A stretch of DNA of 64,000 bases, taken from positions 1 through 64,000 of the IMG/VR virus record IMGVR_UViG_3300048588_001019. One strand, written 5' to 3'. Below the pieces are notes generated by a model. It had not been told where the DNA came from. It searched no databases and was given only the letters and a program-made list of their open reading frames with translations. The stretch comes from a virus. This document shows positions 11,031 through 60,419 of the stretch, one piece after another (the first letter of the stretch is position 1; each line of letters starts with the position of its first letter). The position numbers were made by a program, and so were the translations under genes.

Positions 11031-11783
11031 ATGATGACGGAACGCAGAATACTTGGCTGGATCCCTGACAAGGTTGATGAACGGGACCACATTTATAGAG
11101 CAAATAAGTCGAGGGGAAGATTCCCTGCAACGATCGACCACAGAAAGCGCTTTTTCCGCGCCTGGGATCAGGGCGATCTCGGATCCTGCACGGCTCAGGC
11201 CACAGGAGCAGCCTGCATGTTTCTTGATATTTACGATCGGGACATGCCTGTCGTTGTTCCTTCAAGGCTCTTTGTTTACTATGCGACCAGGACGCTCGAA
11301 GGCACCAAAAACGTTGATTCGGGTGCGACCATCCGCAACACAATCAAGGCCATTGCGAACTGGGGCTATCCACCTGAGAGCAAGTGGCCCTATGATGTCA
11401 AAAAATTCACGACACGCCCTTCGGAGGACGTTATTGCCGAGGCTGCGAAGGAGAGAATCAACTCCTACCAGCGTCTTGATCGGGACCTTGGTCAGTTTCG
11501 CGAAGTCCTTTGCGAAGGCTATCCGATCATTCTTGGCTTTGGAGTTTATTCGTCCGTTTACGACCGCAGCGTGAAGAAAACCGGCCATATTCCTGTGCCC
11601 AATGCTGGAGAGAAGCGGGAGGGCGGACATGCTGTTCTTGTGGTCGGATACGATGACACAAAGGAGGCTTTGATCATCCGTAACTCATGGGGTGAGGATT
11701 GGGGCGAGGAAGGCTATGGATACCTGCCCTATGTTTTCATCGAGGATCCGAAGTTGTCTGGGGATTTCTGGACCATCCGTTAA
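11031..11783 (+). CDS. Papain-like C1 cysteine peptidase
   Basis: [10 protein letters not shown] (Q/C), [10 protein letters not shown] (H), [14 protein letters not shown] (N). Confidence 0.95.
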
Positions 11784-11799
11784 ATCTGTCGAGGCCGAC

Positions 11800-12429
11800 A
11801 TGCTGATCATTGATGTGATTGACGACAATCGAGCCGACAACTGGTCAGCATCCGAGATGATTGAAGAGATCAAGCGGATCCAAGACGCTTTGAATGAGAC
11901 GGCCCGGAAGGCAACCCATTCCCTTAAGGCGGATATGCCTTCACGTTTCACCTTGCGCAAAAACTGGGCGCAAAAAGGGATCCGGTTTGAGCGGGCCACC
12001 CGAGACTCCCTTCAGGCTCGCGTCTTCTCTTTGGACTCCTGGCTTTTGAAGCAGGAAGAGGGGCAAGTGTGGAAGCCCCAGGGGCATGTGGCGATCCCGA
12101 AAGCTGCCCGCCCATCGGAGAGGTCTCTCATCCCGAGGTCAATGTTTCCAAATGCCTTGCGTGATCGCAAGGATGTCTTCGCGTTCGACTTTTCCAAAAA
12201 TGCTTCATGGAAGCCGTTTCCTCACCACGGGATTTTTCAGCGTGTGAGGGGTGGGCAGCACCTGCGGGTGCTCTATTTGCTCAAGGATAAAAAGACAACC
12301 CCGGCACGATGGAGATTCAGCGAGCAGGTCGCGGACGTGGTCAATCAGTATTTTGATCGCTACTATGACGAAGATGAACTCGATGACTTTTATTGGAGTC
12401 GCGAGAGTTACGCTACTGATTTCAGGTAG
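11800..12429 (+). CDS. Phage protein, lambda GpZ/minor tail-like (intact template of repeated fragments)
   Basis: ALNETARKA...RFTLRKNW...GIFQR; GAGG RBS before ATG 11800; genes of this type are often found upstream of cos/TerS. Confidence 0.6.
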   Translation: MLIIDVIDDNRADNWSASEMIEEIKRIQDALNETARKATHSLKADMPSRFTLRKNWAQKGIRFERATRDSLQARVFSLDSWLLKQEEGQVWKPQGHVAIPKAARPSERSLIPRSMFPNALRDRKDVFAFDFSKNASWKPFPHHGIFQRVRGGQHLRVLYLLKDKKTTPARWRFSEQVADVVNQYFDRYYDEDELDDFYWSRESYATDFR

Positions 12430-12573
12430 CAGCTCATAAAAAAGGGACCACTTTGCAGCGATCCCTCACGCCAGCTCTCCCAAGCTGTCCCGGCAATACT
12501 CCGGCGAAGCCAGATTGATGTCAACATCATTGGCTGACTTCGATGGGAAGCGGACACTTTTTAGGGAGAACCT

Positions 12574-13347
12574 ATGGAAAAAATCAAGTTTGGCGATCTT
12601 ATCAAAATCGGACGACACACCCTTCTTTGCGGTGATAGCTCCGAGCGCGCGATGCTTGCCCCGCTATTCGAGAATCGGTTTCCTGTCCTGATGGTTACTG
12701 ACCCACCCTATGGCGTGAATTTCAAAGTTAGGGACAGGCAGGAGCCTTCAACCGTCCTCGCTCAGGGGACGAAGCTGGAAGAACTCGGGATCCGGAACGA
12801 TCATCGCGCGTCCTGGTCGCGGGCGTTTCATCTCTCCCAGGCCAGGGTCGCCTATATCTGGCATGCTTCGACCGCGACTGACGTGGCCCTTCAGGCCATT
12901 CGCGATGGGGACTACGAGCCGAGGCAGGTCATTGTCTGGGCAAAGAACCGTGCTACCTTAAGTCGGGCCGCGTATCATTGGAAGCACGAAAGCTGCGTTT
13001 ATGCCGTCCGCTTTGGTGAGACCGCCAACTGGAAGGGCGACCGGAAGCAGACCACACTTTGGGCTGCCGATATTCCGCCAGCAAAAGACCGGATTCACCC
13101 CACTCAAAAGCCGATTGAACTCTATGTCCGTCCAATTCTGAATCATACCGAAAGAGGGGATGTGATTTATGACCCGTTCGCCGGTTCAGGAGTGATCTTC
13201 GCAGCTGCTCAGGAAGCAGGTCGTGAGGCGTTCGGAGTTGAAATTGAGCCTTTATTTTGCGAAAAGATAATTGCGCGAATGGAAAGCCAGTATCAATTAA
13301 AGCCCAGGGTGATCGGCAATGTATTTCTTCCGAGTGCGAAGGCTTGA
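12574..13347 (+). CDS. Beta-class N6-adenine/N4-cytosine DNA methyltransferase
   Basis: HTLLCGDS, TDPPY, HPTQKP, DPFAGSG order. Confidence 0.93.
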   Translation: MEKIKFGDLIKIGRHTLLCGDSSERAMLAPLFENRFPVLMVTDPPYGVNFKVRDRQEPSTVLAQGTKLEELGIRNDHRASWSRAFHLSQARVAYIWHASTATDVALQAIRDGDYEPRQVIVWAKNRATLSRAAYHWKHESCVYAVRFGETANWKGDRKQTTLWAADIPPAKDRIHPTQKPIELYVRPILNHTERGDVIYDPFAGSGVIFAAAQEAGREAFGVEIEPLFCEKIIARMESQYQLKPRVIGNVFLPSAKA

Positions 13348-13368
13348 TCAATTGCCTGAGTCGCCTTT

Positions 13369-13776
13369 TTAAGGGCCTGTCGAGATGATCACTTCAATTT
13401 TTCCAGGCTTTTTAACCTCAGAGTAGGGCTTAGGCACTTGAGAGACAATGGCTCCCTTTTTAACAGAGCGGCTGGCTATATACCCGACTATCTTGATTGA
13501 AAACCCTGTGCCAGCTATGAATTCCTCGATAACGGCAGGATCATTTGGATCCTTGCCTTCCAAAGGGGGAACCCACTCCATGGGCTTATCCATTTCCAAC
13601 GAGCCTCCTCTCCCACCAAGTGGTGGTTTAATATCCGAATTTTTCGCTAGGGTAACCTCGGAGGTAACAGCAGATCCACCATGGGCTTCCTGTAAGGTTA
13701 AACCTGTGAAACTTGCATAAAGCATTGCTGCCGAAACAAGAGACCTTATATTCGTCCACATTATCTGTAGCCTCAC
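13369..13776 (-). CDS. Secreted PASTA-domain protein
   Basis: Signal-like N-terminus; SRSVKKGAIVSQVPKPYSEVKKPGKIEVIISTGP. Confidence 0.75.
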   Translation of the reverse strand: MRLQIMWTNIRSLVSAAMLYASFTGLTLQEAHGGSAVTSEVTLAKNSDIKPPLGGRGGSLEMDKPMEWVPPLEGKDPNDPAVIEEFIAGTGFSIKIVGYIASRSVKKGAIVSQVPKPYSEVKKPGKIEVIISTGP

Positions 13777-13857
13777 GGTTACGGGGCATTCATCCCGGTT
13801 ATTGCAACTTCTGTTAGACTTGACTTTTAACTTTGAATCATAAGCGGCGCCATCCTG

Positions 13858-14077
13858 AATGCAGGGTAGCCAGTACCTAAGGATTCTCTATTTCCTCGAG
13901 GACAAAAACAGCACTCTGGCTCGTTGGTAATTCAGCGAGCAGGTGGAGGACGTGGTCGATGAATAAATTGATCCCTACTACGGTGAGGATGAACTCGATA
14001 TTCCATTGGGACCGTGAATGCCAAGCGGCCAATCTCAGATAACATCCCACAAAAAAGGGACCACATACTCGATCCCT
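13858..14077 (+). pseudogene. Degenerate copy of the 3' end of the GpZ-like gene plus downstream hairpin
   Basis: Aligns with ~12245-12466 (TTCAGCGAGCAGGT, GATGAACTCGAT, AAAAAAGGGACCAC); in-frame stops. Confidence 0.9.
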
Positions 14078-14133
14078 TTCCTTCTAACTACTTTCCTTGA
14101 TTTAGAAGCCTGCTAGACATTTTCCAACTTTCT

Positions 14134-14592
14134 TTACTTTCTCGATTTCGGTAATTCATAGCATTTGGGTATTCTTGATACTAAATCATTCTCGCTAGTC
14201 TTGTTGAAATGTGCTGCGGTTCTGATTGCCCATTCAAACTTCCCCGAAAGTTTATTCAAAGTATTTTTCGACAAAGAAGCGCAGGCTATGTTCAGTTCCT
14301 TAGAGTGTCTATGAATTATCGTACCGAGCTGATCAGTTAGAGTCTCATCAACACTTGCTGTCTTGAATGCCAATGCTTTAAGATATTCACTCAAGCAATC
14401 TTTGCACTGACCTTTAGCCAAAAGCGGGATCATTTTGGCGACTGTTGGGAGAAATTCGTTCTCATGAAACTCATTTCTTGTGACAGCGTCTTCTTTAGAC
14501 TCATTTTGACTAGTTTTATGAAACACGGTGATAACTTCTTTTTCTCCTGATAGACTTAATTGGGCCAGGATGAGCAAAGTCGATATCATCAT
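14134..14592 (-). CDS. Secreted hypothetical protein, putative immunity protein
   Basis: Signal peptide; starts 21 bp after a toxin-tip remnant. Confidence 0.6.
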   Translation of the reverse strand: MMISTLLILAQLSLSGEKEVITVFHKTSQNESKEDAVTRNEFHENEFLPTVAKMIPLLAKGQCKDCLSEYLKALAFKTASVDETLTDQLGTIIHRHSKELNIACASLSKNTLNKLSGKFEWAIRTAAHFNKTSENDLVSRIPKCYELPKSRK

Positions 14593-14612
14593 TTAGGAAC
14601 CTCGATCCATTC

Positions 14613-14777
14613 TTATTTGACTTTAAGCTTAATGTAAGGCGTCTGAGGTTGGCGATATATTTTTCTGAGTATGTCGCCTAGGGCATCAGAACCGTTACTC
14701 AGAGAGCATTTGACCCCAAGACATCCTAAGGTGCCCGGCACGCCGCGATCAGGATGGATCCTGAGTCGAAGGCGGGT
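14613..14777 (-). pseudogene. Orphan C-terminal fragment of an L,D-transpeptidase-fold (YkuD/Tlde1-like) toxin
   Basis: Translates TRLRLRIHPDRGVPGTLGCLGVKC...KLKVK*; His...GC catalytic pattern; no start codon. Confidence 0.6.
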
Positions 14778-15004
14778 CTAATGTTTGATGTTCTTGCGAC
14801 CAATTTAAGCTCGTTTTGATCTCGTATGTGAATCTAGATTGAAATAATCCTGGCTAACGCGGTTAAGATTTCTTAACCTATTTTAAATGAGAAAATAGAA
14901 TATCCGAGGCTACTTTTTGTAGCAGATACTCATCTAATAATTTCAATTTCAAATTTTTATGAAACGATTGCGAAGTTTCTGCCAGTCCGCAACAAGAAAC
15001 GCTG

Positions 15005-15133
15005 GCTCAGGAAGCAGACCGTGAGGCGTTTGGTGTCGAAATTGAGCATTTGCTTTGCGAGAAGATCATTGCGCGAATGGAAAATCAGTATAGTTTGAAA
15101 GCCAAACTCATCGGCAATGTTTTTGCCCTGTAA
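15005..15133 (+). pseudogene. Degenerate copy of the methyltransferase 3' end
   Basis: GCTCAGGAAGCAG...ATTGCGCGAATGGAAA...ATCGGCAATGT aligns with 13207-13326. Confidence 0.9.
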
Positions 15134-15219
15134 TCAGTGGCCGCTGGAATGGACTGTCCGCAGCCCTAAGTGAGTTTCGAAATGCTGCAGTGTAAGGCTT
15201 GCCCTGCTTGCAGTAGGGA

Positions 15220-15259: not shown

Positions 15260-15703
15260 TTATTGTGTTGCTTCCCGGATCAGCATTCTGCGGTCTTTGA
15301 GAATCACTGAATCAAGCGTATCGCCTTCACTCACTTCGTAAGAAAGGTTGCCGCCACTTGGCCCAACTGTCCCGACAGGTTTTTTCCAGTCACGGAGGAT
15401 GCGAATGTCTTCGGGGGAGAATCTAAGTACAGGAGGATTTACGCCGCCAGTACCAGCATCAAGTTCCGACAAGGGAGTTCCGGTGCCGATTGAGCCCGCG
15501 CTCACCAGGATATGCGGCTGGAGCTTTGTTTTAGTGAGAAGGCCGAGATCGCCCTTCAAATCATAAAGACCACCATCAAGCTCGGGACTGAGATTAAGAA
15601 TCTGTTCCAAATCCTTGATGGCTGGAGGGGTGCCGCCACTCATTCCGCTCCCGCCAAAAGCTTGAGATGAGGCAAGCACTATAGTCAGTAATGTCTTTTT
15701 CAT
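15260..15703 (-). CDS. Secreted hypothetical protein
   Basis: MKKTLLTIVLASSQAFGG signal peptide with GGAG RBS; true start 15703. Confidence 0.7.
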   Translation of the reverse strand: MKKTLLTIVLASSQAFGGSGMSGGTPPAIKDLEQILNLSPELDGGLYDLKGDLGLLTKTKLQPHILVSAGSIGTGTPLSELDAGTGGVNPPVLRFSPEDIRILRDWKKPVGTVGPSGGNLSYEVSEGDTLDSVILKDRRMLIREATQ

Positions 15704-15707
15704 CGTA

Positions 15708-16403
15708 TCACTCCACTGGCCCGGCGATAAGCGAACCGACGATAACATTGTTGCCTTTTCGTTTATCCAGAACCTCATGAATCTTCTCTTTGTATTCGGA
15801 TGTAATGCGATAGATTTCTCGCACTCCATCATCATCAACTGCACCGCGAAAGTTCTCCAACGATGTCCCTGGCGTATCAAGTGAGACGATATCGAAATGA
15901 TGCACCGAAACAAGCTTCAGGATCTCCTCGCTTGGGAAAGCGATACCTTTAAGGTTATCGAGATACATTCCATCGACTTCAGACAGGATGCCAAGCTCAA
16001 CCAGCTTTTCGACTCGCTTCATTCCGTCTGAGCCAAATTTCTCTTTTATCTGGGTGATCCTTGCATTCAACGTTGCTGCAAATACAAACACGCGATAAAG
16101 TTGGGCATCCTTTGCGAGATATCCGATAAGCACCTCGGTTTTATCCGAACCAACGGCCACATATTCTTTTGATTCCACCGGATAAAAATCCGCGAGCACG
16201 TTCAAATAGCTCTGGGGCTCAAGAACTTTCAGGATCTTACTTGCGTTGAGAAATGACAAGTTTTTTTGACTGCCATCCACAAGTCGATAGATCGTCGTGT
16301 TGTCTACCCCTGTTTGCCGTGAAAACCAACGAAAACTTTCGCTTCGAGAGTCCACGTACTCTTTGATTTTCGGCTTTAGAAAGGCGCATATAGTATGAGC
16401 CAC
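15708..16403 (-). CDS. HTH/winged-helix regulator, TIGR02147/DUF4423-like
   Basis: SFRWFSRQTGVDNTTIYRL HTH, VEKLVELGIL wHTH, HH...EIYRITSEYKEKI C-domain. Confidence 0.65.
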   Translation of the reverse strand: MAHTICAFLKPKIKEYVDSRSESFRWFSRQTGVDNTTIYRLVDGSQKNLSFLNASKILKVLEPQSYLNVLADFYPVESKEYVAVGSDKTEVLIGYLAKDAQLYRVFVFAATLNARITQIKEKFGSDGMKRVEKLVELGILSEVDGMYLDNLKGIAFPSEEILKLVSVHHFDIVSLDTPGTSLENFRGAVDDDGVREIYRITSEYKEKIHEVLDKRKGNNVIVGSLIAGPVE

Positions 16404-16535
16404 TTAGACACCCCACTTGCATCTACTATATAGTTACGAGCGTTGATTACCATGATCTGCGGGATTTCGGAAATGTGAATGACCCGTCCTGGGTAAATTT
16501 TCCTTAACTATTACTGTCAAAATAGCTTGGATGGA

Positions 16536-16592
16536 CTATTTCATTTGAAACAAACAGCAATTTCGATTCACTCCTTGTTTCAAATGAAACAA
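16536..16592. promoter_or_regulatory. Twin palindromic operators TTGTTTCA-N2-TGAAACAA
   Basis: CTATTTCATTTGAAACAA (16536-16553) and TTGTTTCAAATGAAACAA (16575-16592) between divergent genes. Confidence 0.6.
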
Positions 16593-16890
16593 CTCCTGTT
16601 CCTTTTTTTTCGATAGTTTACGGGGCGAATGACCTCATCTGAAAGAAAACCTGATTCATCTGCCGAATCATTTTCCTTTCGTTCTCTGCAAGTCGTTGCC
16701 TGCTCTCAATTCGTTGCGTATTCCGACTTCTGAAAATGAACCGAGATGGATAACTTTCAAGGTCAGTCGAGTTTTCTCTCAAAGTCATTCTCGTCCCTGT
16801 GTAATGCCACGCGGCTCCCACCACTCGGGCGATTAAATCTTTTGAAGGCGGGCTTCTTTGGAAGCTCCGCCTGATTTCAAATTCTAAGAG

Positions 16891-18105
16891 ATGTTATTGG
16901 AGAGAAATATGAGGAATTTAAGAATGTTTCGAACGCTTTTGGGCGCATGTGCTCTCTTAGCATTTACGTCGGTGACTGGATTTGGTTTCACTCAGCAAAC
17001 GAGACGAGACGAGCTCTGCGGCGTTGAGCTTTACGAAGAGAGAAGCGATCGTCCGGACGTTTGTGGCAATAGACACGCCGTGAAGGCATCGCCTGCATGC
17101 CCTTTTGATAGATTCGAGTCTGGCACCGACCTAGCCTGCCCTGGTGCAGATGCAGGTGGCCGGAAAGTTAAGCCCCAGGCCAGGTTTTTCGGCAATACCG
17201 CAGTGACAATCGACTGGGGCAGAGCCCAGGGCGGCTCGATCGTACAAGGCGACGAGAACTTGAGTCAGCTCGTAGGATCCTCCTACGCTGACTATAAGAC
17301 CTTTGGCACCCCCGCTAGCGGCGGCGGCGGTTATAGGTGGGTAAAAGAGAGCAGGTATTGGAGCTGCGTGCTGGAAGCTCAGAAAAATCCTCAGTTCAGT
17401 TATGTCTCGGTTGAATGCACAGCCAAGCCGTACGCAACGACCTGCGAAGCGGAAAGGTTCGGAAAGATATACAAATCTTGCGAATCCACGACTCACGAAA
17501 TCGTCGGGGCGAAGACCTGCAGAAGCGATCAATTCCGACCTGAGCTTTATAAGAGCTGCAGCTTTTACAAGACGAGAGATGAACTCAATGTTTACCTCAC
17601 TGAGGTCAGTTCATCTGCTGATAACTATATCATGATCCTCCCGACTCGACAGGCGGACCTTTATAGCAAACTCCGCGACGAGGCGTCTTTCAAATGCCTA
17701 ATTGAAAAATATGACGGGACACCATTCATGGATGAAGTTGTAGTGGATCTGAAGGAAAAATTCTTCCTAATCTTCGGATTGCAGTACGACGAGTCCGAGG
17801 TGGATTGCAAAAACGTTTCTATCAACGTCAATCCAGAGGTTACGGCAGGCAAATTGAATTGCAAAAATTACACCTACGATAGCTTGAAAGCTCTCATTCT
17901 TCCAGAGGGCATGAGCAAGGGGCTATTCGATAGTTTCGTTAAGAAATGTCAGTCAAAAATAGTATACGACAATCTCTCCAGCTGGTTTGAGACCAAAAAG
18001 GATGAAATCTCACTTCTGGAAGATGACTTAGCGGCTCAAAAGGACACCGGATTGCGTAACAGGCTTCTTGAATTGAAAACCAGGCTTGATGACGCCACCA
18101 AATAA
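16891..18105 (+). CDS. Secreted cysteine-rich protein with C-terminal helical region
   Basis: Signal peptide, many Cys; first gene of the toxin operon. Confidence 0.75.
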   Translation: MLLERNMRNLRMFRTLLGACALLAFTSVTGFGFTQQTRRDELCGVELYEERSDRPDVCGNRHAVKASPACPFDRFESGTDLACPGADAGGRKVKPQARFFGNTAVTIDWGRAQGGSIVQGDENLSQLVGSSYADYKTFGTPASGGGGYRWVKESRYWSCVLEAQKNPQFSYVSVECTAKPYATTCEAERFGKIYKSCESTTHEIVGAKTCRSDQFRPELYKSCSFYKTRDELNVYLTEVSSSADNYIMILPTRQADLYSKLRDEASFKCLIEKYDGTPFMDEVVVDLKEKFFLIFGLQYDESEVDCKNVSINVNPEVTAGKLNCKNYTYDSLKALILPEGMSKGLFDSFVKKCQSKIVYDNLSSWFETKKDEISLLEDDLAAQKDTGLRNRLLELKTRLDDATK

Positions 18106-18130
18106 CGCGATGAATCGGGAGCGCTGTCCT

Positions 18131-19390: not shown

Positions 19391-19392
19391 GA

Positions 19393-21326: not shown

Positions 21327-21356
21327 GAGTGGAAAATATGAGCGTCGGATTCATTC

Positions 21357-22890: not shown

Positions 22891-22907
22891 GCAAAGTATT
22901 CCTGCTG

Positions 22908-51419: not shown

Positions 51420-51569
51420 ATGGAAGACACAAAGACCCAACCAGTCGCAAATGAGAAGCAGGAGCAGCCTACCCAAGTTATCCATGCTTCCGATGGATGG
51501 ATTGCCGTTTTCAGAAAGAGCATTCAAGTTGGCTCTGGAGAGTTTCCTTGGAAGGTAAAGGAATCTTAA
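51420..51569 (+). CDS. MEDTKT small protein (second copy of repeat), ending in the 18-bp motif
   Basis: AAGGAGG RBS; homologous to 32648-32815. Confidence 0.5.
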   Translation: MEDTKTQPVANEKQEQPTQVIHASDGWIAVFRKSIQVGSGEFPWKVKES

Positions 51570-51611
51570 CCCCAAGCTGAGCCCCTAAGGCTTTGAAAGG
51601 TCCCAAGCCTG

Positions 51612-52044
51612 ATCGTCCACCCCTTGCAATGGCATGCGCGAGATCAGTTTTTTTCACGACCGATTCGAACGGCTTCCTTCAGAATCTCGACCTCTACAGT
51701 CTTGCGTTCAACGCACTTGATGCGATCCACAAGCTTCTTCATCTCGCTTTCTGGAACCCCACGCGCTCCTCGGATCATGCACCTGTCAAAGGTCCATTTT
51801 CCATAGCTCGCCTCCAACTGAATAGACGGTCGGGAGCCATACTATTGTGGGTAACCAGAGAAACCGACATTGCGTGCTGGTAAGTCTCGTCCACGATTGC
51901 CTTTTTCTCTTTAGGTGTCCATCGACGGCGACATTGGGGGCTGGTCAGAACCTCAACCCGGGATTTGTGTTAGCCATGCTGTTGGTTCTAATCCTGGTTG
52001 TTAGGAGCTGACCGAGTTATATGGGCTAAACGGAGGCTACTACA
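51612..52044 (-). mobile_element. Degenerate truncated IS2-like remnant (left end and orfA)
   Basis: Aligns with ~40384-40830, ends GGCTACTACA; deletions and stops. Confidence 0.9.
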
Positions 52045-52123
52045 ACAAATAGCAAAGAAAATTCTACAATACATAGACACTGGCAGTGGGATTTATTTGA
52101 ACGAACGTACCTGAATGCCTGCC

Positions 52124-53443: not shown

Positions 53444-53476
53444 CCACCATGCTCCTAATAAATAATCGGGTTTAGG

Positions 53477-53815
53477 TTAAAATAACCCGACTTCTTTGCA
53501 GGTCCACATCAACCCGCACTTTCTTGGCTGTTCGCACTCAACAATCATCTGACTTGGTATCCTCTGAGGATAGGGGAGTCTGAGGCCTTCCTGGCAATCA
53601 CACTTCCAGCTATAAAAAGCAAGAATTGCTTCGCACTGTTCAAGTGCAGACTTATAGGTTGACCCATAGAACGATATCGAATCGTACTCTTTTTTGCCAG
53701 AATCCTTCCATGTGTAATATAGGTCGACTCGTTTTTGGCAGCCGCCGAAAAATATAGCCAATAAAAATAGCACTGAGATTGAACGAAAGCTCTGGATATC
53801 GAGATGGATTCGCAA
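53477..53815 (-). CDS. Small Cys-containing lipoprotein
   Basis: FLLAIFFGGC lipobox. Confidence 0.55.
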   Translation of the reverse strand: MRIHLDIQSFRSISVLFLLAIFFGGCQKRVDLYYTWKDSGKKEYDSISFYGSTYKSALEQCEAILAFYSWKCDCQEGLRLPYPQRIPSQMIVECEQPRKCGLMWTCKEVGLF

Positions 53816-53845
53816 AGAATGTTCCTCTAGGTTGGTGAGTGTTGT

Positions 53846-55189
53846 TTAACCAGCTTTTGATTTGGCAGCCAAAGCTTCTGCCCAGTAGTAAACAGAAGAA
53901 GCTGAGGGTGCATCTCTTACCTTTTCTGAGGTAAGGCTAAAGCTGTTATAGTCAGTCTTGTGCGATGCCGAAAGATTGCTAAAAAATTCTTCAGAAACAA
54001 TTATTATATTTCCTTCTGCCCCCAAAAGCGGAAGGAGGGTCTTTCTAAACGACTCATAACGAGTTGCCAAAACAATTCCATTTCCAAATAAGTCGTATTC
54101 TTGAGCTCCAGTGGCTGGAAATCCACCAATTACTGTGTCATAGACTATGCCGATGCCGCAGTATATATTCCCATTTTTACTCGTAAAATATCGCTCGACT
54201 TCACTATTAAATACCTGCACAAAACTCATAGCTAAAGAATGAGCTTCGTCAAACATGGAAGCTCCACTTACTTTGAAAGGGAATCCGACTGAGCAAAGAA
54301 AGCCGTCGCCCATCTCTTTTATTCTGAAGGCCGAGGCGAACACATCCGTGCCCTCGAATCTATATCCCGTCATCATAAGCTTGTGGCATCGCTTCATAAC
54401 ATTTTCAAAGAAGAGGTGGTTCTCTTTGTGACCGATTTTTGAGGAATTTTGAATATCAAATGAAATAATGCAGCATTTTGATTCGCCGCTAGGCATGGTT
54501 GATTGAAGTTTAACCCCGTCTTCAATCATGTTGACTTGGTGTTTGTAGAGGATTTTTGATATTTCCTCGTAAGCGTGAACTTTCGCGTCATTTGCTAATC
54601 CAGATACATAGAACTTGTATCGCATTAAAATAGCCGCGAACACTGAAAGAGCCAATGCCATGGAAAGATATGCAATTGTCTCGATGGAATTTTTTAGCAG
54701 AGCTTCGATATTAAAAATAATGAAAATAAGAGAATTAAGGAATATACATATCGTTTGGCGAATAAAAAGGTTTTTAAGCCAAGGATGAAATGCGAAGGCC
54801 ACAGTGAAGAATATGTTCATGCCAAGATAATTGTGGTTAAGGAAGTCCTCGTGTCTCAGTGCAGAATAGACGGAAACAATCCAGGCGGTTTCGATAATAA
54901 AAACGGAGCAAATTATTTCCCAGAATATCCAAGGCCTTTCTTGAATGAGTTTGAAATGCTTGGCGAATAAAGAGTATGAGAAAAACAGTAACGCTGTTGT
55001 AAAGTGACTGAGGCATAGTACTGGTGTTTTGGTTTCAATTCCGCATATTACACCAACAATCAAAATCGCTGCGCCACCAAACCGATAGGGCATTGCCGCA
55101 GCGTAGTATTGATGATAGTCACGAGCGAAAGCTTTAAGATATCGCTGCTTGTGGTTTTTGCAATACTTGGTGACTTCAAGTCTGTCCAT
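53846..55189 (-). CDS. Membrane-bound class III adenylate/guanylate cyclase
   Basis: TM region; SFDIQNSS, RIKEMGDG, YDLFG..LATRYE; paralogous to 48051. Confidence 0.85.
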   Translation of the reverse strand: MDRLEVTKYCKNHKQRYLKAFARDYHQYYAAAMPYRFGGAAILIVGVICGIETKTPVLCLSHFTTALLFFSYSLFAKHFKLIQERPWIFWEIICSVFIIETAWIVSVYSALRHEDFLNHNYLGMNIFFTVAFAFHPWLKNLFIRQTICIFLNSLIFIIFNIEALLKNSIETIAYLSMALALSVFAAILMRYKFYVSGLANDAKVHAYEEISKILYKHQVNMIEDGVKLQSTMPSGESKCCIISFDIQNSSKIGHKENHLFFENVMKRCHKLMMTGYRFEGTDVFASAFRIKEMGDGFLCSVGFPFKVSGASMFDEAHSLAMSFVQVFNSEVERYFTSKNGNIYCGIGIVYDTVIGGFPATGAQEYDLFGNGIVLATRYESFRKTLLPLLGAEGNIIIVSEEFFSNLSASHKTDYNSFSLTSEKVRDAPSASSVYYWAEALAAKSKAG

Positions 55190-55511
55190 TTTAGATTTTC
55201 CAATATGTCTGGATATTTGCTCTTATTATAACGGCAAGGTTAAGGGATTCACAATGTAGTGAACCGAGCGAGAGGTGAGAAATTAAGCAGTAGGCGGGGT
55301 TCCACTTTATTGTGAATCAAAATGAGGTCTGAAAGAGTGGTTGTGGGGTCCGCGATGGGGACTATGAGCCGCGGCAGGTTATTATCTATATTTGCTCTCA
55401 ACCGACCAAGCAGAGTGTTTTGATGATGGGGGATTGTTCGCTTTTCGGATGGCTGGTATACAAAGGGGCTGGTTTTCTCACCGATCCAGCGGACCGGCCA
55501 AAGGGAGGCGA

Positions 55512-55946
55512 ATGCGGACTTATCCATGGGCAAAGGTTAAAGAGCTGATTGATAAGGGTCTCGTGACCATCCCTGGTTCCTGTCAAGCTCGGTATATGCT
55601 CGACCGCGGCATCTTAAATTCCGCGTCTGGCAGAGTGCAAGCTAAGCAAGAGATGAAAGCTGGAATCCGGCTCCTTGAAAACGAACTTTTTAGCCACGTC
55701 TTCTCACCAGAACCTACTAAAAAATTCGATGTCTATGGTCTACCAAATTATCTTAGTTGGGATTGGTATGTTAAAGTTACAATAATGGATTTCGATGATG
55801 GCCAGGGCGACATTGTTGTTAATGCTTCGTTTCATCTCCCTGAACGCGATCTGCATAACGAGGCTAAAACAAAAATAATCTGTATGTGCGAGGATAAGCA
55901 GAGGCAGCGCAAGGTCGAGTTAGGCGAAATTGATGGTGATTTATAG
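55512..55946 (+). CDS. MqsR-like RelE-fold toxin
   Basis: GGGAGG RBS; DVYG...WYVK...ASFH pattern; upstream of a Zn-finger/HTH gene. Confidence 0.6.
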   Translation: MRTYPWAKVKELIDKGLVTIPGSCQARYMLDRGILNSASGRVQAKQEMKAGIRLLENELFSHVFSPEPTKKFDVYGLPNYLSWDWYVKVTIMDFDDGQGDIVVNASFHLPERDLHNEAKTKIICMCEDKQRQRKVELGEIDGDL

Positions 55947-55976
55947 AGCTAGTCATTTCAGTGTATTAATGACATA

Positions 55977-56015
55977 CTTGACATTATGTCAAGTTTTTCC
56001 TGGAAATGCCGATAG
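55977..56015 (+). promoter_or_regulatory. Palindromic operator overlapping a sigma28-type promoter of the antitoxin
   Basis: CTTGACAT-T-ATGTCAAG (55977-55993); TCAA-N15-GCCGATAG (55989-56015). Confidence 0.55.
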
Positions 56016-56045
56016 AATCTGTGTTATGAGGACCTCGGAGGATCT

Positions 56046-56756
56046 ATGGCTATCTCTTGCACAAATTGCGATGGTAATATCCTGAAACGACAGGCAAAAG
56101 GAGAATTCTTCTCTTTTGGTGAATTTGGCAAGGTTAGACTTACTCAAGATCTCGAAATTCGATTTTGCGACAAATGTCATGAAACTTACCTACTTATGGA
56201 TGATTCTAGTCTTGACGACGCGTTAGAAGCATCCTTATCTGAAAATGTCCGTGAAGTGTTGGAAGAAATAAAGTCACGACATTCTATCAAAGCAAAAGAA
56301 ATTGCGAATTTCTGCGGAATCACACCTGAAACGCTTTCCCGCTTTAAACAAAGTGGAGAAAATGGAAGGCTTGTTCCTTCTGAAATATTCCTGATTCTAA
56401 AAAGAATTGCAATTGAAGGTCGGTCCTTTATAGACAAAGCCCTCAATGAAACATGGGAACGGAAAGAAAATCCTCGCGCTGTTCGGCCTTATGCTGATAA
56501 TCCACAGAATTCAAGGTTCGATCTTGATCTTGTTGTCTATAGTAGACATGGGCATATAGTGGCTTTTGAAGCAAAAAATGCCGGCTGGAGCCAGGGGACC
56601 AATCAAACCCGCACTTCTATCAACCGAATGAAATATGTTTTCGATAATGAACGCGAATCGTTGTGGCATGCTTCTCGGTTTTCTACTTTTAATAATAGTG
56701 AACTATTGCCTGTCAGCCGTCTAGAATGTAAATCCCGGAATCAACGCGCTAAGTGA
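56046..56756 (+). CDS. MqsA-like antitoxin (Zn ribbon plus HTH) with a C-terminal extension
   Basis: CTNC..CDKCHETY; AKEIANFCGITPETLSRF; DLDLVVY..VAFEAK. Confidence 0.7.
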   Translation: MAISCTNCDGNILKRQAKGEFFSFGEFGKVRLTQDLEIRFCDKCHETYLLMDDSSLDDALEASLSENVREVLEEIKSRHSIKAKEIANFCGITPETLSRFKQSGENGRLVPSEIFLILKRIAIEGRSFIDKALNETWERKENPRAVRPYADNPQNSRFDLDLVVYSRHGHIVAFEAKNAGWSQGTNQTRTSINRMKYVFDNERESLWHASRFSTFNNSELLPVSRLECKSRNQRAK

Positions 56757-56772
56757 TTCCCATTCAACGCTC

Positions 56773-57202
56773 CTAATCACCCATCCTAATTTTTGTATTG
56801 CGTGTCCGAATCTTCTGCTGGACTGAATGCAAGCGTGTCCATTAGCTCGTCCACACTCATGACTTCGCTAATATCTTTGAGGCACTCTAAATCTAAAGTA
56901 AATGGATCGTCTAAAAGGCAGTTCATTTTGCTGAATAGGACCGTAGTTCTCTTTCATGCTGATACCCAATATCTTTTACGAATCCCAGCTCTTGATCGCT
57001 GATATGGACCTTGGTCCCTTTAAGTGGTCTGTAGTCCACAAGCCTTGCTTCAATATCGATTCCAAATGATTGGGCTGCCCGCTTTGGTCTGACATTGAAC
57101 TGGGTCCAACCAAACATAAGGCTTTTCGTGCCTTCCGAAACTATTCATTCTTTTTGAAATACTTAGTGTGCTAACAAACTGGGCAATATTTTCATCAGTC
57201 AT
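56773..57202 (-). pseudogene. Frameshifted DUF2971-like remnant
   Basis: FVKDIGYQHERELR motif; coding-like sequence spread over three frames. Confidence 0.4.
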
Positions 57203-57228
57203 GGGCTCGCTGCCCCAAAAGGCGATAT

Positions 57229-58266
57229 TCAAGTTGGTATGACTTCTACCCCAGGTCCTGGAACTTCTAGCGAACGGATTGGTGGAGTATTTGGCAACGA
57301 GAGAATCTCTCCTAAATATGTTAGCGTTTGAATGAATAACGCTTGTGCTTCAGACCCGGTCACATCACTATGCACGCCTGTCGATACCCTTTCATATAGA
57401 TTCGAAAGTGCCTGCCGGAATTTTTTCCTCCTAGAATCACTCGTTACTCTCGCCCGAATATACGCATTGAGCCGATTTAAGTGATTGGACGGACCTAACT
57501 TGACCTCATTGTCATCCATCTCCATTGTTTCTGCTTGCGGGGGGAAGATTGCGTCAGAGAAGGAATCAATAATTCTTCGGCAGGAAGATAAAGCTTGGCT
57601 TATAGCTTCCGCATCGCCATCCGCAAGCCTTTCGTATACTGCAGGAATTTTTTTGAGAACGTCAGCAGAGATTGATGCTAGCCTCTTATCAAGCTCAATC
57701 TTGTATCTTTCAAATATGCTCTCTGCGACAGCACTAAATTTCCGTTCATAATAGATCCTTGAAGTAAAATCATGAATCAACCCAATTACTTTAGATCGAA
57801 TGCCGGCAGCCTTTACAATATAGTCTCCCAACCCACGCCTTTCCAGGGCTTGGGAACTCAAATGGCTTTGAATTTGGGCAAAACCGTCGGTAACTCGTTC
57901 ATGTGGATTCGCACTGGTTGGAGCCCAATTGATGCTTAAGGTGCTGATAGTGTTTAGCCGTGTTTGACTGGTTTCCATCGACGCAAGTATTTCAGATAGC
58001 GAACCCCAGTAACCAGTATTCTTGGAAGCATCAATCCATCTGCCTGTGAATCCCATGTATCGCTTACCGGTTTCGTCTGCTCGGAAGCCCATCACTTCAT
58101 ATTGCAACCATGTTAGAGTTTCAGACGTGTCGGTGATACGGGCAAGGCGGGTTGCTTTAAGAACGATTTGGGTAGGAGTAATACGGCTAAGTTCTATGTC
58201 GTCTAAGATTTCTTGGGCTAATGAGATTACGTGCTGACCTTTGTTCTCGATAGCTTTGTCGCTCAT
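57229..58266 (-). CDS. AbiTii-domain protein
   Basis: ILDDIELS..IVLKATRLAR..WLQYEVMG; C-terminal SCRRII...STGVH. Confidence 0.75.
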   Translation of the reverse strand: MSDKAIENKGQHVISLAQEILDDIELSRITPTQIVLKATRLARITDTSETLTWLQYEVMGFRADETGKRYMGFTGRWIDASKNTGYWGSLSEILASMETSQTRLNTISTLSINWAPTSANPHERVTDGFAQIQSHLSSQALERRGLGDYIVKAAGIRSKVIGLIHDFTSRIYYERKFSAVAESIFERYKIELDKRLASISADVLKKIPAVYERLADGDAEAISQALSSCRRIIDSFSDAIFPPQAETMEMDDNEVKLGPSNHLNRLNAYIRARVTSDSRRKKFRQALSNLYERVSTGVHSDVTGSEAQALFIQTLTYLGEILSLPNTPPIRSLEVPGPGVEVIPT

Positions 58267-58479
58267 ATTGGAATCACCATAATGCAAGGATTAGTGAGTT
58301 TTAGAAGTATAGTAGCGATTTTTTTGCTTACTATGCTGAATTTCAACTAATGTCGTGGCACGGAGCTCTTAACCAACATTCATATCAAAAATTTGCCTCG
58401 GAAATCAATAAAATGCGCGACGCATTCTCGATTTTTAGGAGAATATAGAATTTGAAGTGCGAAACCAGCGCCGCATTCA

Positions 58480-58720
58480 CTTTCTTAAAAAGGCAGGTTA
58501 TAGTGGCGTCTGAATTGAAGGAAGGCTATATGCGACGCGTATTTGCAGACATCGAAGATTGAGAGATAGACAGCTTGGGCTTTCATTGCCTGTACTGCAA
58601 AAGTCCACCTGATTGAAGAAAAGCCTACGGCGAGTTCCATTGGTGCTCTCCGTGCTGACTGCGACGCAGGATTTTTGTTACGCTTTTAGAAAATGAACGG
58701 AATCATATCGCAATGTGAAT
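58480..58720 (+). pseudogene. Degenerate small zinc-finger gene, copy A
   Basis: GAAGGAAG RBS, ATGCGACGCGTATTTGCAGACATCGAAGAT..., in-frame stop; aligns with 59987-60222. Confidence 0.85.
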
Positions 58721-58790
58721 TCAGAGGGATTTCATGTGAGATAAAATGCCTGAAGTCTTCTTTGATATTTTGTCAGTTTTTCTCGTCAGC

Positions 58791-59834
58791 CTATCGCTTT
58801 GCGATGTATGTGGTCATAGATTGAATGCCGGTAAGTACACTCTGAAGTAATGTCTGCTGAAATGCTTTTGCATAGTCTGGTAGTTCATGCATACAGAATG
58901 TGCCCTTGAGAATCCAGCTGCACGATGAGGCTGCTAAATCTGCACCCTGAATTCCTTTGGACTTATTTGAACTCAGGAAATCAACTTGACCATTAAAGAA
59001 TGGACCCACTGTTATTCCACGACTTGGGTCATCGTCATACGGATTTGAAATGTGTTTGCTTTTCTCTCCATTTACAGCTTTAGCCACCCAAGAGAATGAT
59101 TTTTGATACTGAAGTTGCTCATCGAAATACAGCTTTCCATGCGAAAAATCTTCTCTAACGAATAATCTTGATAGACATTGAATCATCATCGAAAAGGCAT
59201 GGAAATTTGGACTGCAATGCTCGATAAATGGATGCTCGATCCCTCCAGGATCGGGGGGTATAGTACACTCAAGGAACTCTTCTTCACGCAACCTAAGAAT
59301 CCAGGAAAACACTTCTTCTTTCAATTTTGAGTCAATGATGTATCTATCAATGTCCATCTTGGCTTTCAAAAGTTTATCTTTGTTTGAGGCTGCTAGCGCA
59401 TGAATAAAATTTTGACGCAATGTGATAGGTATTTTTTCGCAAATCGTAGCAGTTAAGCTCTGCTTTATGTCAGGAGTAAAGAATGTTTCATACGGCACAT
59501 TTTCATTGTAGGCCGAATCGAGTAAGTATTCTGTACACATTATACCGCCGAAGAAGTCCTTCTCAATAATGCTATAGCAGAGTTCAATACTATTCCTTTT
59601 GAGTTCGGACATCAGAAGCTCAAATGTTGGAAAGTTTCGTCTTCTCTTTAAGGAACCAAATTTAAGCTCTTCGAGACCATTTCTTGCGTTTAAAATCATG
59701 TGTTCGATTAAATCGACTTTCGATTCTCTGAATGCAAAAGCCGCGATCACAAAATATGGCTGTTCTTGATCAAGGATGTTTGATCCTGTATTGCCTGACT
59801 CGTCCATGAATATTACTAGGTCGTCATTATTCAA
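58791..59834 (-). CDS. DUF3800-domain protein
   Basis: FMDESGNTG, ELKF, FDEQ, GIQGADL. Confidence 0.85.
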   Translation of the reverse strand: MNNDDLVIFMDESGNTGSNILDQEQPYFVIAAFAFRESKVDLIEHMILNARNGLEELKFGSLKRRRNFPTFELLMSELKRNSIELCYSIIEKDFFGGIMCTEYLLDSAYNENVPYETFFTPDIKQSLTATICEKIPITLRQNFIHALAASNKDKLLKAKMDIDRYIIDSKLKEEVFSWILRLREEEFLECTIPPDPGGIEHPFIEHCSPNFHAFSMMIQCLSRLFVREDFSHGKLYFDEQLQYQKSFSWVAKAVNGEKSKHISNPYDDDPSRGITVGPFFNGQVDFLSSNKSKGIQGADLAASSCSWILKGTFCMHELPDYAKAFQQTLLQSVLTGIQSMTTYIAKR

Positions 59835-59986
59835 TTTCTAAGCTCCGGCTTGGATGGCTTGTCTAAATAGCTGACCAAAAAGATCTGATCGAAGCAAGTT
59901 AATTTTTTATGTCACATTGTTTGAACGCAAAGACTTCCCTCATTCCGCGGCAGGCACTTCACGTGCGGAAGTTGTCCCGCATTACC

Positions 59987-60222
59987 TTTCGAAAAAAGCT
60001 GGTTTATAGTCGCTTCTGAACTGAAGGAAAGACTTATGCAACGTGTATTTGCCGACATCGAAGATAGATAATCAGATAGCCGGGGCTGCCATTGTCCCTA
60101 GTGTAAAGTTTACTTGACTGAAGATAAGTCAACGAGAGTTCCATTGATACCCGATGCAGAGATTGCGATGCAGATTTTCTTGTTACCTTTTTTGACGAGA
60201 AAGGGAACGATGCCGCATGTGA
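59987..60222 (+). pseudogene. Degenerate small zinc-finger gene, copy B
   Basis: ATGCAACGTGTATTTGCCGACATCGAAGAT..., in-frame stops; direct repeat of 58480-58720. Confidence 0.85.
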
Positions 60223-60268
60223 TTTCTTGCAAATTAGTTGCGCACGAATTCAAGATCTTTCGCCGCAC

Positions 60269-60419
60269 GGGTCCTTTCCCCAATAAAAACGCGAGGGTGA
60301 CGATCAACCGCCCCCTCCCGCTTGGTTTCAAAAAAAATTTGCGTCACCGGCACCACTTGCCTTCGTGAACGCCTTTAGCTGAAAGACTTCCAGATTAGGT
60401 CCTGGTAAATTTGTGGACA
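60269..60419 (+). other. Lambda-like cos packaging region
   Basis: GGGTCCTTTCC (lambda cosQ context), GGGTGACGATCA at 60295 (8/12 match to the lambda cohesive end), A-tract, directly upstream of TerS. Confidence 0.7.

Follow-up and report, generated by a model that had tools for sequence, protein, structure and literature searches.

Several described systems resemble parts of the locus reported here. In the hotspots of P2 and P4, cargo that includes defence systems occupies a fixed place between conserved genes near cos and is swapped among close relatives (PMC9122126; PMC13586616), and small pseudogene remnants, some of them of core genes, have been read as scars of intense recombination (PMC13586616). 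In the case of lambdoid mosaicism, related temperate phages and prophages exchange DNA at short diverged homologies, the exchange being promoted by phage recombinases, which recombine diverged sequences and are encoded in the same genome (De Paepe et al. 2014, PMC3945230). The orphan cassette arrays of rhs and cdiA hold co-oriented 3' fragments downstream of an intact gene, each followed by different cargo and providing homology for later recombination, with an in-frame fusion between the conserved gene and the variable part, a toxin tip plus immunity (Koskiniemi et al. 2014, PMC3967940). Integron cassette arrays are ordered series of unrelated cargo units at one place. The eukaryotic association module of phage WO, an accessory region of very large size that encodes toxin-like and repeat proteins, adjoins the packaging and head genes of a temperate phage.

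The present locus, from a lambda-like temperate phage of Oligoflexus, has something in common with each of them. Like the P2/P4 hotspots it has a fixed place near cos, exchanged content, defence genes and remnants of core genes; however, the elements there measure 11-33 kb, carry a single system or a few and have almost no transposable elements, whereas here about ten slots extend over 47 kb and include IS3 copies. Compared with P2/P4, layered and ordered 3' relics of several backbone genes are found only here, together with a duplicated right arm and a second cos-like element. The lambdoid recombinases are Rad52-like and replace segments, whereas the candidate enzyme here is Sak4-type (AAA_24, Rad51-like class) and the outcome is a net addition that leaves displaced gene ends. 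Co-oriented 3' fragments followed by different cargo recall the Rhs/CDI arrays, but the cargo here consists of separate genes, often on the opposite strand, and there are several anchor genes. An ordered series of unrelated cargo is shared with integrons, although we find neither an integron integrase nor attC-type sites, and the separators are phage-gene relics. As in phage WO, a large accessory module lies beside the packaging and head genes, and the WO terminase is among the best database matches to TerL of the Oligoflexus phage (33-35%); to our knowledge, the WO module has not been described as containing backbone relics, and the two modules are not known to share cargo or architecture.

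A hypervariable cargo region before the packaging genes

The record (IMGVR_UViG_3300048588_001019) is an 80,485-nt viral contig rather than a prophage flanked by host DNA; the window analysed is its first 64,000 nt. The capsid protein is 98% identical to that of a related prophage in G073, a closed single-contig 7.57-Mb Oligoflexus genome. Homology to another sibling, G066, ends at 9451, after the conserved late/lysis block, and an intact anchor block and the packaging genes enclose the variable region:

3805-4677, +: DUF3799 PD-(D/E)XK exonuclease (Pfam; recombination module, 3805-6601)
4681-5613, +: AAA_24 (Sak4-type) ATPase (Pfam; same module)
5513-6136, +: SSB (Pfam; same module)
6197-6601, +: RusA (Pfam; same module)
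8519-9016, +: GH108 endolysin, closing part of the late/lysis block
9221-9451, +: small HTH regulator, last gene of that block
10941-13347, +: intact anchor block, conserved in G001, G066 and G073
11031-11783, +: Peptidase_C1, intact (anchor block)
11800-12429, +: GpZ-like (phrog_1924 minor tail protein), full copy 1 (anchor block)
12574-13347, +: N6_N4 DNA methyltransferase (MTase), full copy (anchor block)
60532-61182, +: terminase small subunit (TerS)
61139-63025, +: terminase large subunit, gpA-type (TerL)
from 63197, +: lambda-family portal, 3' of TerL

Between these flanks, ~47 kb are filled with toxin, defence and signalling genes, among which broken ends of the phage's own backbone genes are interspersed. 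The cargo has a GC content of 39-46%, against 50-55% in the backbone, and its ORFs are mostly long and intact:

9452-10924, +: slot 0, 1.47-kb insert, with ~48 nt in its place in G066
13369-13776, -: slot 1, PASTA-domain protein, common to this phage and G066
14085-15004: slot 2, with ORF 14134-14592 (-) and a perfect 18-bp palindrome at 14861-14878
15260-24180: slot 3, with the next two entries and small ORFs
15260-16403, -: two-gene cassette, homologues in L068, G073 and L048
16891-21326: PT-TG polymorphic-toxin operon
24844-27159: slot 4 (24844-28829), Kelch/beta-propeller protein
27501-28829, -: slot 4, 442-aa protein
30332-31612, -: slot 5 (30332-32025), DzbA-like (Dazbog) protein (PADLOC E 3e-28)
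31624-32025, -: slot 5, neighbour of the DzbA-like gene
33147-35216: slot 6 (33147-38297), McrB-like AAA_5
35213-36280: slot 6, McrC
36288-37106, -: slot 6, ORF
37122-38297, -: slot 6, C5 cytosine methyltransferase
41165-41356, -: slot 7 (41165-46535), small ORF downstream of the RHS toxin
41386-45333, -: slot 7, RHS toxin
48039-49931: slot 8 (47741-50700), 7TMR-DISM/cyclase protein, plus small ORFs
50773-51571: semi-conserved island, with ORF 50773-51159 (-; 61-71% to G073) and the intact MEDTKT gene
52124-53443, -: slot 9 (52124-58287), cyclase-domain protein
53846-55189, -: slot 9, second cyclase-domain protein
55392-56756: slot 9, ORFs
57229-58287, -: slot 9, AbiTii
58791-59834, -: DUF3800 gene

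The siblings have these anchors in common and differ in cargo, with almost no overlap. The distance from GpZ to TerS/TerL rises from ~3 kb (L053), 3.7 kb (G002:C57) and 9 kb (G003:C297) to 13 kb (G002:C238), 14 kb (G001), 30 kb (G073) and 47 kb here. The region from protease/GpZ-like/MTase to cos-TerS is, in short, a hypervariable hotspot. The slot 0 ORF at 10092-10613 has a homologue in no sibling, and the sibling loci yielded no donor phage for any of the large blocks (PT-TG operon, Kelch, McrBC, cyclases), so that we infer their sibling origin only from the attached relics.

Relics of backbone genes between the slots

Self-blastn, a repeat search and a tblastn comparison of the record with all its ORFs recovered every repeat family listed by an earlier, sequence-only reading, at the positions given there, at 67-95% identity and with E-values of 1e-8 to 1e-134, and thus not by chance. 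The order protease, GpZ, MTase, motif, MEDTKT, cos was likewise found twice, with all copies direct. The relics of anchor genes are 3' ends only, in the same orientation as the intact gene and downstream of it; the repeats termed cos are cos-like by sequence, the inner one being a putative cos:

13859-14084, +: GpZ-like 3' relic, copy 2, 73% (self-comparison), internal stops, also in G066
15005-15159, +: MTase 3' relic 1 (15005-15124 81%), with its downstream flank 95.5% identical in G066
24183-24525 (repeat 24183-24458), -: Zn-ribbon 1 copy a, 62 aa, CxxC...CPHC, with a ~60-nt downstream unit and 18-bp motif at 24273
29343-29540 (repeat 29184-29464), -: Zn-ribbon 1 copy b, with motif unit
29647-29791, -: Zn-ribbon 1 C-terminal relic c, with motif unit
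32618-32815 (repeat 32618-32737), +: MEDTKT copy 1, frameshifted relic
38650-38807, +: inner cos-like element, copy 1 (38674-38802 against 60291-60419, 94.6%)
38870-39087, +: Peptidase_C1 3' relic, last 72 codons (38952-39087 against 11648-11783, 86%; protein-level match from 38870)
39105-39521 and 40830-41045, +: GpZ-like copy 3, interrupted by an IS3 element
39522-40829: this IS3, with orfB 39550-40302 (-), orfA 40374-40763 (-) and a 5-bp target duplication AGCCT
~45323-46535, -: second IS3 (slot 7), missing from contigs of runs X2 and X3
46977-47310, +: GpZ-like 3' relic, copy 4, 77% (self-comparison), fused directly to MTase relic 2
47310-47533, +: MTase 3' relic 2
51420-51569 (repeat 51321-51441): intact MEDTKT, ending in the 18-bp motif
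51612-52045, -: truncated IS3 (orfA end and terminus), 84% to 40383-40831 in the IS3 of GpZ copy 3
58455-58722 (repeat 58471-58722), +: Zn-finger 2 pseudogene, first
59964-60226 (repeat 59977-60226), +: Zn-finger 2 pseudogene, second
60255-60424, +: outer cos-like element, copy 2, 108 nt upstream of TerS

The two Zn-finger 2 pseudogenes, both with nonsense or frameshift changes, bracket the DUF3800 gene. The array has also been reshaped by IS3 elements. In runs X2 and X3, contigs pass directly from 45322 to 46536, an IS-free form of the site, and the repeat between 40383-40831 and 51612-52045 is an IS3 orfA fragment and no backbone piece. An 18-bp quasi-palindrome, GGTWAAGRAWTCTTAACC, with a ~60-nt unit, is enriched at slot borders, which lies outside what the layered capture proposed below accounts for.

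The history of the layers can be followed in an independent genome, G066:C142, which shares protease, GpZ, MTase, PASTA and GpZ relic at 85%, and the MTase relic with the cassette at 95.5%. Between the GpZ and MTase relics it holds 4.15 kb of unrelated DNA, against 0.92 kb here. The relic layers are inherited, and the slot bounded by two relics has been swapped between this phage and G066. The same cargo also occurs at the same anchor in a sibling contig, L068, where the full-length MTase precedes homologues of 15260-16403, the cassette found after MTase relic 1 here.

Origin of the copies and competing explanations

The copies could have arisen by tandem duplication of backbone pieces in situ and decayed thereafter, the cargo having come in later and by unrelated routes, with no contribution of sibling alleles. 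The sequence-only reading had taken them for diverged alleles instead, and the GpZ tree upholds it: each copy is at least as close to sibling alleles (G001, G066, G003) as to the resident one, the own copies fall in one clade with the G001, G003_C321 and G066 alleles (93/88 support), and a clade of the four own copies is rejected by the AU test (p 0.0071). The G066 and G001 alleles are nearer to relics 2 and 4 than the resident gene is (copy 4: 78% to G001, 71% to copy 1), MTase relic 2 shares 79% identity with the L066 allele and 68% with the resident MTase, and the content of the slot between two relics is wholly different in G066. Duplication would nevertheless agree with the monophyly of copies 1 and 3 alone, which is not rejected (p 0.19), and with the two GpZ copies of G073, each the nearest relative of the other (80%), so that duplication and divergence or gene conversion are enough in that genome. 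The large second round is itself a segmental duplication; as an account of the whole array we consider this alternative improbable. The two collinear rounds had been attributed to serial capture, and their order is kept, but they did not arise that way in this phage: positions 2,067,065-2,067,928 of G073 align continuously at 66% to 38631-39522, covering the cos-like element, the junction, the protease 3' end and GpZ, a junction found among 95 genomes of the order in G073 only. On this alignment, the second round comes from one older segmental duplication, which predates this phage. The same junction in a single contig speaks against an assembly chimera, in which co-occurring siblings would have been stitched at shared backbone sequence, and so do the first-round layers in the independent G066 assembly. 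A join of the cos-like element to the protease 3' end is a path in no normal sibling genome, exact-word joins are not expected at relics only 67-95% identical, and parts of the second round recur in other assemblies: in the unrelated run X2 the 5' end of the RHS gene is joined to the region of GpZ relic 4, with 2 mismatches over 515 nt, and short identical contigs from runs X1 and X5 lie across 39-55 kb. Nonetheless, the record comes from a metagenome and its contig lacks end repeats, the same IMG sample series contains many siblings, the IS3 copies share a 43-nt exact repeat, no run was found that holds the whole stretch, and most junctions in slots 3-6 and 8-10 are seen in this record's assembly alone. 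We regard a chimera as the least probable of the explanations.

Hardly more probable is a site-specific cassette system, integron-like, in which GGTWAAGRAWTCTTAACC and its ~60-nt unit would be recombination sites for a dedicated enzyme. The motif has 12 matches in the 64-kb window against 2.24 expected, occurs nine times in this record and never in 780 kb of sibling loci, and its units at 46912 and 47561 flank the block of GpZ relic 4 and MTase relic 2. Yet the record encodes no tyrosine integrase, its sole transposases being IS3 DDE enzymes, and the motif is not at the relic borders shared with G066; three units coincide with the downstream flanks of Zn-ribbon 1 copies and one with the MEDTKT 3' end, so that they may be gene-end relics like the others. 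The strongest competitor, which we still think unlikely, accepts the same accretion but places it in a grounded, decaying prophage, free of the packaging constraint, as a neutral graveyard and not a selected library. It would explain the broken anchors (two GpZ relics, one IS-split GpZ, two MTase relics, two Zn-finger 2 pseudogenes, one frameshifted MEDTKT and one truncated IS3) and the length of the record, which at 80.5 kb or more exceeds by 19-25% the siblings that are complete or nearly so (67.6 and 64.1 kb) and makes packaging of the whole record uncertain. However, all the replication, lysis, head and tail genes align full-length and stop-free to G073 at 84-98%, CheckV completeness is 97%, the cargo ORFs are largely intact, and at least two unrelated samples contain identical sequence.

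A proposed model of layered capture

All together, foreign alleles, shared anchors and the slot swap with G066 support serial, homology-anchored capture from sibling phages, of which at least eight contigs from one IMG sample series form a donor pool. The plain single crossover of the sequence-only reading did not hold up, since it would integrate a whole donor genome, and the relics are 3' ends only. These would fit one homologous and one illegitimate end, or unequal exchange. In the model we propose, cargo would be added layer by layer by recombination with sibling-phage DNA, in which one end falls within a backbone gene common to both (GpZ-like, MTase, Zn-ribbon or Zn-finger) and the other is non-homologous. 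The incoming DNA would bring its own 3' gene end and downstream cargo, and the resident 3' end would be displaced further downstream as a relic; relics, once there, would delimit slots open to renewed exchange of content. The protease 3' end, GpZ, cargo and cos-like element of the second round come from one older duplication of the right arm, which most likely arose when two copies of the genome, lying in a concatemer or as a tandem double lysogen, were joined unequally or illegitimately. It was passed down to this phage and to the G073 prophage, with IS3 insertions and decay altering the array afterwards. The DUF3799 exonuclease, the Sak4-like ATPase, SSB and RusA, whose genes are present, are candidate enzymes for the capture.

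We put the probability of this explanation as a whole, a late-region cargo hotspot between the protease/GpZ-like/MTase genes and cos-TerS-TerL filled by layered capture, at about 0.7. The cargo array may be of benefit to the host, and could act as the library, able to contract or reshuffle, that the sequence-only reading proposed. Core-gene pseudogenes in P4/P2 hotspots have been read as recombination remnants (PMC13586616), and the backbone leftovers described here would be a record of repeated recombination with sibling phages, a known process that in this phage has reached an exceptional scale.

A cargo hotspot upstream of the small terminase

The phage record G000 (IMGVR_UViG_3300048588_001019), whose first 64 kb make up the window, is a single contig of 80,485 nt without end repeats, classed by IMG/VR as linear at its ends and estimated by CheckV to be 97% complete. 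Its gene order, as obtained from Pfam and PHROG scans, is listed below.

Gene order of G000
Early genes: DnaD-like replication protein, first
Recombination module, after the DnaD-like gene: DUF3799 PD-(D/E)XK exonuclease, AAA_24/Sak4-type ATPase, SSB, RusA
Lysis end, after the recombination module: GH108 endolysin and small HTH regulator (9221-9451)
Anchor block: papain-family protease, 209-aa GpZ-like protein, N6/N4 DNA methyltransferase (MTase)
Accessory block: ~47 kb between the methyltransferase and the small terminase
Packaging and structural genes, to 80 kb: small terminase (TerS), gpA-type large terminase (TerL), lambda-family portal, head and tail genes

No close cultured phage was found, the top TerL identity being 33-35% (Acidithiobacillus phage AcaML1 and Wolbachia phage WO), and the TerL search returned no annotated close relative. 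Oligoflexus MAGs contain homologues of the 209-aa GpZ-like protein, which places the host lineage in Oligoflexus (Bdellovibrionota). A close sibling is found as a prophage at ~2.033-2.097 Mb of G073, a single-contig 7.57-Mb genome, with 95% identity in TerL, 98% in the capsid protein, 84-90% in structural DNA and ~72% in early DNA. In spite of this capsid identity the lengths differ, with 80.5 kb in G000, 67.6 kb in the sibling phage G001 (probably complete, given a 158-nt near-identical overlap of its ends) and 64.1 kb (64,137 nt by IMG/VR limits) in the G073 prophage. The tyrosine recombinase family PF00589 gave no match across the whole 80.5 kb of G000, with positive controls; it is missing from both G000 and G001, two near-complete phage records, though a close sibling occupies a bacterial chromosome. 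No RNA genes were found in the window by Rfam (gathering threshold) and ARAGORN, and PDB sequences, searched with a profile, yielded no hit at E up to 1. Two further repeats were observed outside the array: an exact tandem of three 42-nt units (7118-7243) within a 338-aa HTH/sigma-region-4-like ORF (6595-7611), and diverged tandem repeats (72335-72885) internal to a 404-aa tail-region ORF past the window (71987-73201), which are also present in G001.

The position of the accessory block is constant among siblings (loci of G001, G073, L053, G002 and G003), with the GpZ-like gene upstream and Zn-finger 2, a cos-like element and TerS downstream. The flanking genes are common to all, whereas the sibling loci hold homologues of almost none of the G000 cargo proteins, and the distance separating GpZ and TerS/TerL ranges between 3 and 47 kb.

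Gap between GpZ and TerS/TerL
Sibling locus L053: ~3 kb (GpZ, Zn-finger 2, cos-like element, TerS)
Assembly G002, contig C57: 3.7 kb
Assembly G003, contig C297: 9 kb
Assembly G002, contig C238: 13 kb
G001: 14 kb
G073 prophage: 30 kb
G000: 47 kb

Cargo of G000
Toxins, predicted: PT-TG toxin operon, RHS toxin
Predicted defence: McrBC with a C5 methyltransferase, AbiTii
30332-32025, minus strand: DzbA-like protein (PADLOC E 3e-28) and an adjacent 133-aa gene
Other: a Kelch protein, DUF3800 and three cyclase-domain proteins

The DzbA-like gene and its 133-aa neighbour are possibly a Dazbog-type defence pair. The GC content of the cargo (39-46%) is lower than that of the backbone (50-55%). Judged from sequence, the region fits a P2/P4-type cargo and defence hotspot near cos, with its fixed position, variable content and predicted defence or competition genes. 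In the round-2 cargo of the G073 prophage, three tandem paralogues of ~260-290 aa (68-78% nucleotide identity) lie at 8660-12010 of L039, its prophage piece (2,068,660-2,072,010 of the chromosome).

Displaced gene ends and the layers they bound

The sequence-only reading had described families of backbone fragments repeated along the array, with the backbone order kept twice. Both descriptions hold: self-blastn, a repeat finder and all-ORF tblastn recovered every family at its place, in all cases as direct repeats (67-95% identity, E 1e-8 to 1e-134), as well as the doubled order, here called round 1 (~11-38.8 kb) and round 2 (~39-60.4 kb).

Backbone copies and insertions in the array
11800-12429: resident GpZ-like gene (copy 1)
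13859-14084: GpZ relic (copy 2)
15005: MTase relic
38650-38807: inner cos-like element
38870: protease relic
39105-41045: GpZ copy 3, interrupted by a 1,308-bp IS3 element at 39522-40829 (target duplication AGCCT)
~45323-46535: second IS3
46977-47310: GpZ relic (copy 4)
47310: MTase relic
58455-58722 and 59964-60226: Zn-finger 2 copies, just upstream of the outer cos-like element, both with in-frame stops and one also frameshifted
60255-60424: outer cos-like element

For GpZ, MTase and protease, every relic is a 3' end, co-oriented with the intact gene, downstream of it and followed by different cargo each time. The relics stop at the normal stop codon of the gene; the cargo genes are separate from them, and many lie on the minus strand. 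Zn-ribbon 1 is a genuine minus-strand gene for a 62-65-aa CxxC...CPHC protein, present as two intact copies and one relic; a frameshift disrupts MEDTKT copy 1, and Zn-finger 2 is intact in two siblings, the G073 prophage and L053. The repeat 40383-40831/51612-52045 is a truncated IS3 rather than backbone. Many anchors have decayed, and part of the array may be a graveyard; a selected library that reshuffles its genes finds no direct support. As for the name GpZ-like, it is reasonable, given a match of the 209-aa protein to phrog_1924 'minor tail protein' (E 1.6e-17) and the DUF6441 or Minor_tail_Z assignment of a minority of its protein-atlas neighbours, but it is not proven; an AlphaFold2 model from nine sequences was unusable (mean pLDDT 42). 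In two more distant siblings, L051 (7584-8114 and 13601-14350) and L052 (9791-10351 and 13144-13893), the protease, rather than directly preceding GpZ, follows it at a distance of 3-5 kb, which indicates that the protease is itself a movable piece of the region.

Contig C142 of an independent genome assembly, G066, shows that these layers are inherited. It aligns with G000 5649-9451 (88% identity), has no counterpart of 9452-10924, and aligns again over 10925-14084 (85%), a block comprising protease, GpZ, MTase, a PASTA gene and the GpZ 3' relic. Beyond this relic it carries 4.15 kb of unrelated DNA, against 0.92 kb in G000, and the alignment restarts exactly at the MTase 3' relic and continues through the next cassette at 95.5%. 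The layers therefore persist over roughly 5-15% divergence, with a variable slot bounded precisely by two relics, and, being shared, they are not an assembly artefact of the G000 contig. A metagenome contig (L068) has a full MTase and, downstream of it, homologues of the two-gene cassette found behind the MTase relic in G000, presumably the older state. Outward from the anchor, round 1 looks like a series of strata: GpZ-MTase-PASTA, the newest, then the GpZ 3' end with its slot, and then the MTase 3' end with its cassette. Relics are absent from G001, G002:C238 and most IMG/VR siblings, so the layering is not universal in the lineage.

The whole stretch was not found in any one public sequencing run, the best having at most 22% of the sampled words of 38000-47900. 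Run contigs are short and cover few of the junctions of the array; those from four runs give identical short pieces across 39-55 kb in two unrelated samples, one of sludge and the other an algal metagenome. Contigs of two unrelated runs join 45322 to 46536, which indicates that the second IS3 is a recent insertion and that near-identical IS-free relatives exist, and one run connects the RHS 5' end with the GpZ relic 4 region (2 mismatches in 515 nt). A contig of run X3 joining 39425 to 46980 was considered as a contracted form of G000, but it differs at 21 of 263 positions and more probably comes from a sibling whose GpZ gene is uninterrupted.

Origin of the copies and of the two rounds

After simple tandem duplication and decay, the copies should resemble each other more than they resemble sibling alleles, and this is not what we find in G000. 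A protein tree of 20 GpZ sequences places the four G000 copies in one clade with alleles of G001, G003:C321 and G066 (support 93/88), unresolved inside; by identity each copy is closer to these siblings than to the resident gene (for copy 4, 78% to G001 against 71% to copy 1). With the DNA alignment, the AU test rejects monophyly of the four G000 copies (p 0.0071) but not of copies 1 and 3 alone (p 0.19). Likewise, the second MTase relic is 79% identical to the allele of sibling locus L066, against 68% to the resident MTase. The two GpZ copies of G073, on the other hand, do have each other as nearest relatives. Tandem duplication and decay is therefore unlikely for the G000 GpZ set, and allele comparison marks the G000 copies as foreign alleles, in agreement with the capture from sibling phages that had been proposed.

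The doubling of the order is a single, older duplication. The G073 prophage has the layout of G000 (protease, GpZ, cargo, cos-like element, protease 3' end, GpZ, cargo, Zn-finger 2, cos-like element, TerS), and its DNA across the inner junction aligns continuously with G000 38631-39522 at 66%. Among 95 genomes of the order searched, the linked junction is present in G073 only, so the segment from the protease 3' end to the cos-like element was duplicated once, before the two phages diverged; the cargo was then turned over in each round separately. Precisely this doubled layout would arise if two copies of the genome, within a concatemer or a tandem double lysogen, were joined once at unequal or illegitimate positions.

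The repeat that closes each round has a core of ~63 nt, nearly invariant in all four copies (two each in G000 and G073), in which a GC-rich run lies between A/T-rich flanks, with a second short conserved island after it. In both phages with an inner copy the core is better conserved than the flanking genes, and it is also found upstream of TerS in the more distant siblings G002:C57, G003:C250 and L053. A promoter reading found no support, since a scan of both copies for sigma-70 promoters and terminators gave nothing above shuffles, and a sigma-54 candidate within the core (GGCAC...TTGC) has, by eye, a spacing 2 nt shorter than the consensus. In lambda-like phages cosQ, cosN and cosB lie within ~200 bp; initiation requires cosN and cosB, termination cosQ and cosN (PMC4669245). 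The position and conservation of the element fit such a region. The outer copy lies 108 nt before TerS; the inner copy lacks these 108 nt, where by analogy cosB would be expected. If the inner copy were an efficient cos, round 2 would be lost in every lytic cycle; the doubling has been kept in two diverged phages, so the inner copy is probably weak or not a cos. We consider it unlikely that the inner copy is instead a working packaging signal kept by selection, with the genome packaged through two cos sites either whole or without the inter-cos module (21.6 kb in G000, 9.5 kb in G073), and we know of no natural cos phage of this design. If it were true, round 2 would be a facultative cargo unit, shed or kept, that escapes the capsid size limit. 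The array also makes one ask how a putative cos phage copes with 47 kb of extra load and with a second cos-like element.

Relation to known systems

Two routes could lead to co-oriented relics that are 3' ends only: an event with one end in a shared gene and the other end non-homologous, or an unequal exchange between siblings already differing in copy number. Phage recombinases recombine short, diverged homologies (PMC3945230), and the phage's own recombination enzymes are a candidate set for the capture events. In P4/P2 hotspots near cos, pseudogenes of core genes were recently described and taken for remnants of recombination (PMC13586616). In structure, the nearest parallel is found in the rhs/cdiA orphan-cassette arrays (PMC3967940), where co-oriented 3' fragments also lie downstream of an intact gene, each with different cargo; there, however, the variable module is fused in frame to the conserved fragment, whereas the G000 cargo is unfused. 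An integron would have a tyrosine recombinase beside the array, a family without a match here, and attC-like inverted repeats at every border, whereas G000 has only an 18-bp quasi-palindrome at ~9 sites.

This motif, GGTWAAGRAWTCTTAACC, occurs in the window at 9489, 14861-14878, 24273, 29276-29293, 29654, 46912, 47557-47574, 51558 and 58201. It gives 12 matches against 2.24 expected, and 9 in G000 against none in 780 kb of sibling loci. It lies within a ~60-nt unit at slot borders, and such units flank the GpZ/MTase relic block; the relic borders common to G000 and G066 do not have it. Three units are the downstream flanks of the Zn-ribbon 1 copies and one is the MEDTKT gene end, so the units may be gene-end relics too, although the motif could still be a putative binding or recombination site.

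The class of mechanism is already known; what sets the array apart is the scale, the layered order, the inherited slots bounded by relics, and the duplicated right arm with its second cos-like element. The array extends hotspot biology to phages of Bdellovibrionota, for which it points to the G073 prophage as a culturable experimental system, and links phage hotspots with the orphan-cassette arrays of polymorphic toxins. In it one can read, layer by layer, how a temperate phage builds up its accessory-gene arsenal, each event being marked by displaced 3' gene ends, and it suggests that core-gene relics are, beyond mere scars, reusable homology for later exchange.
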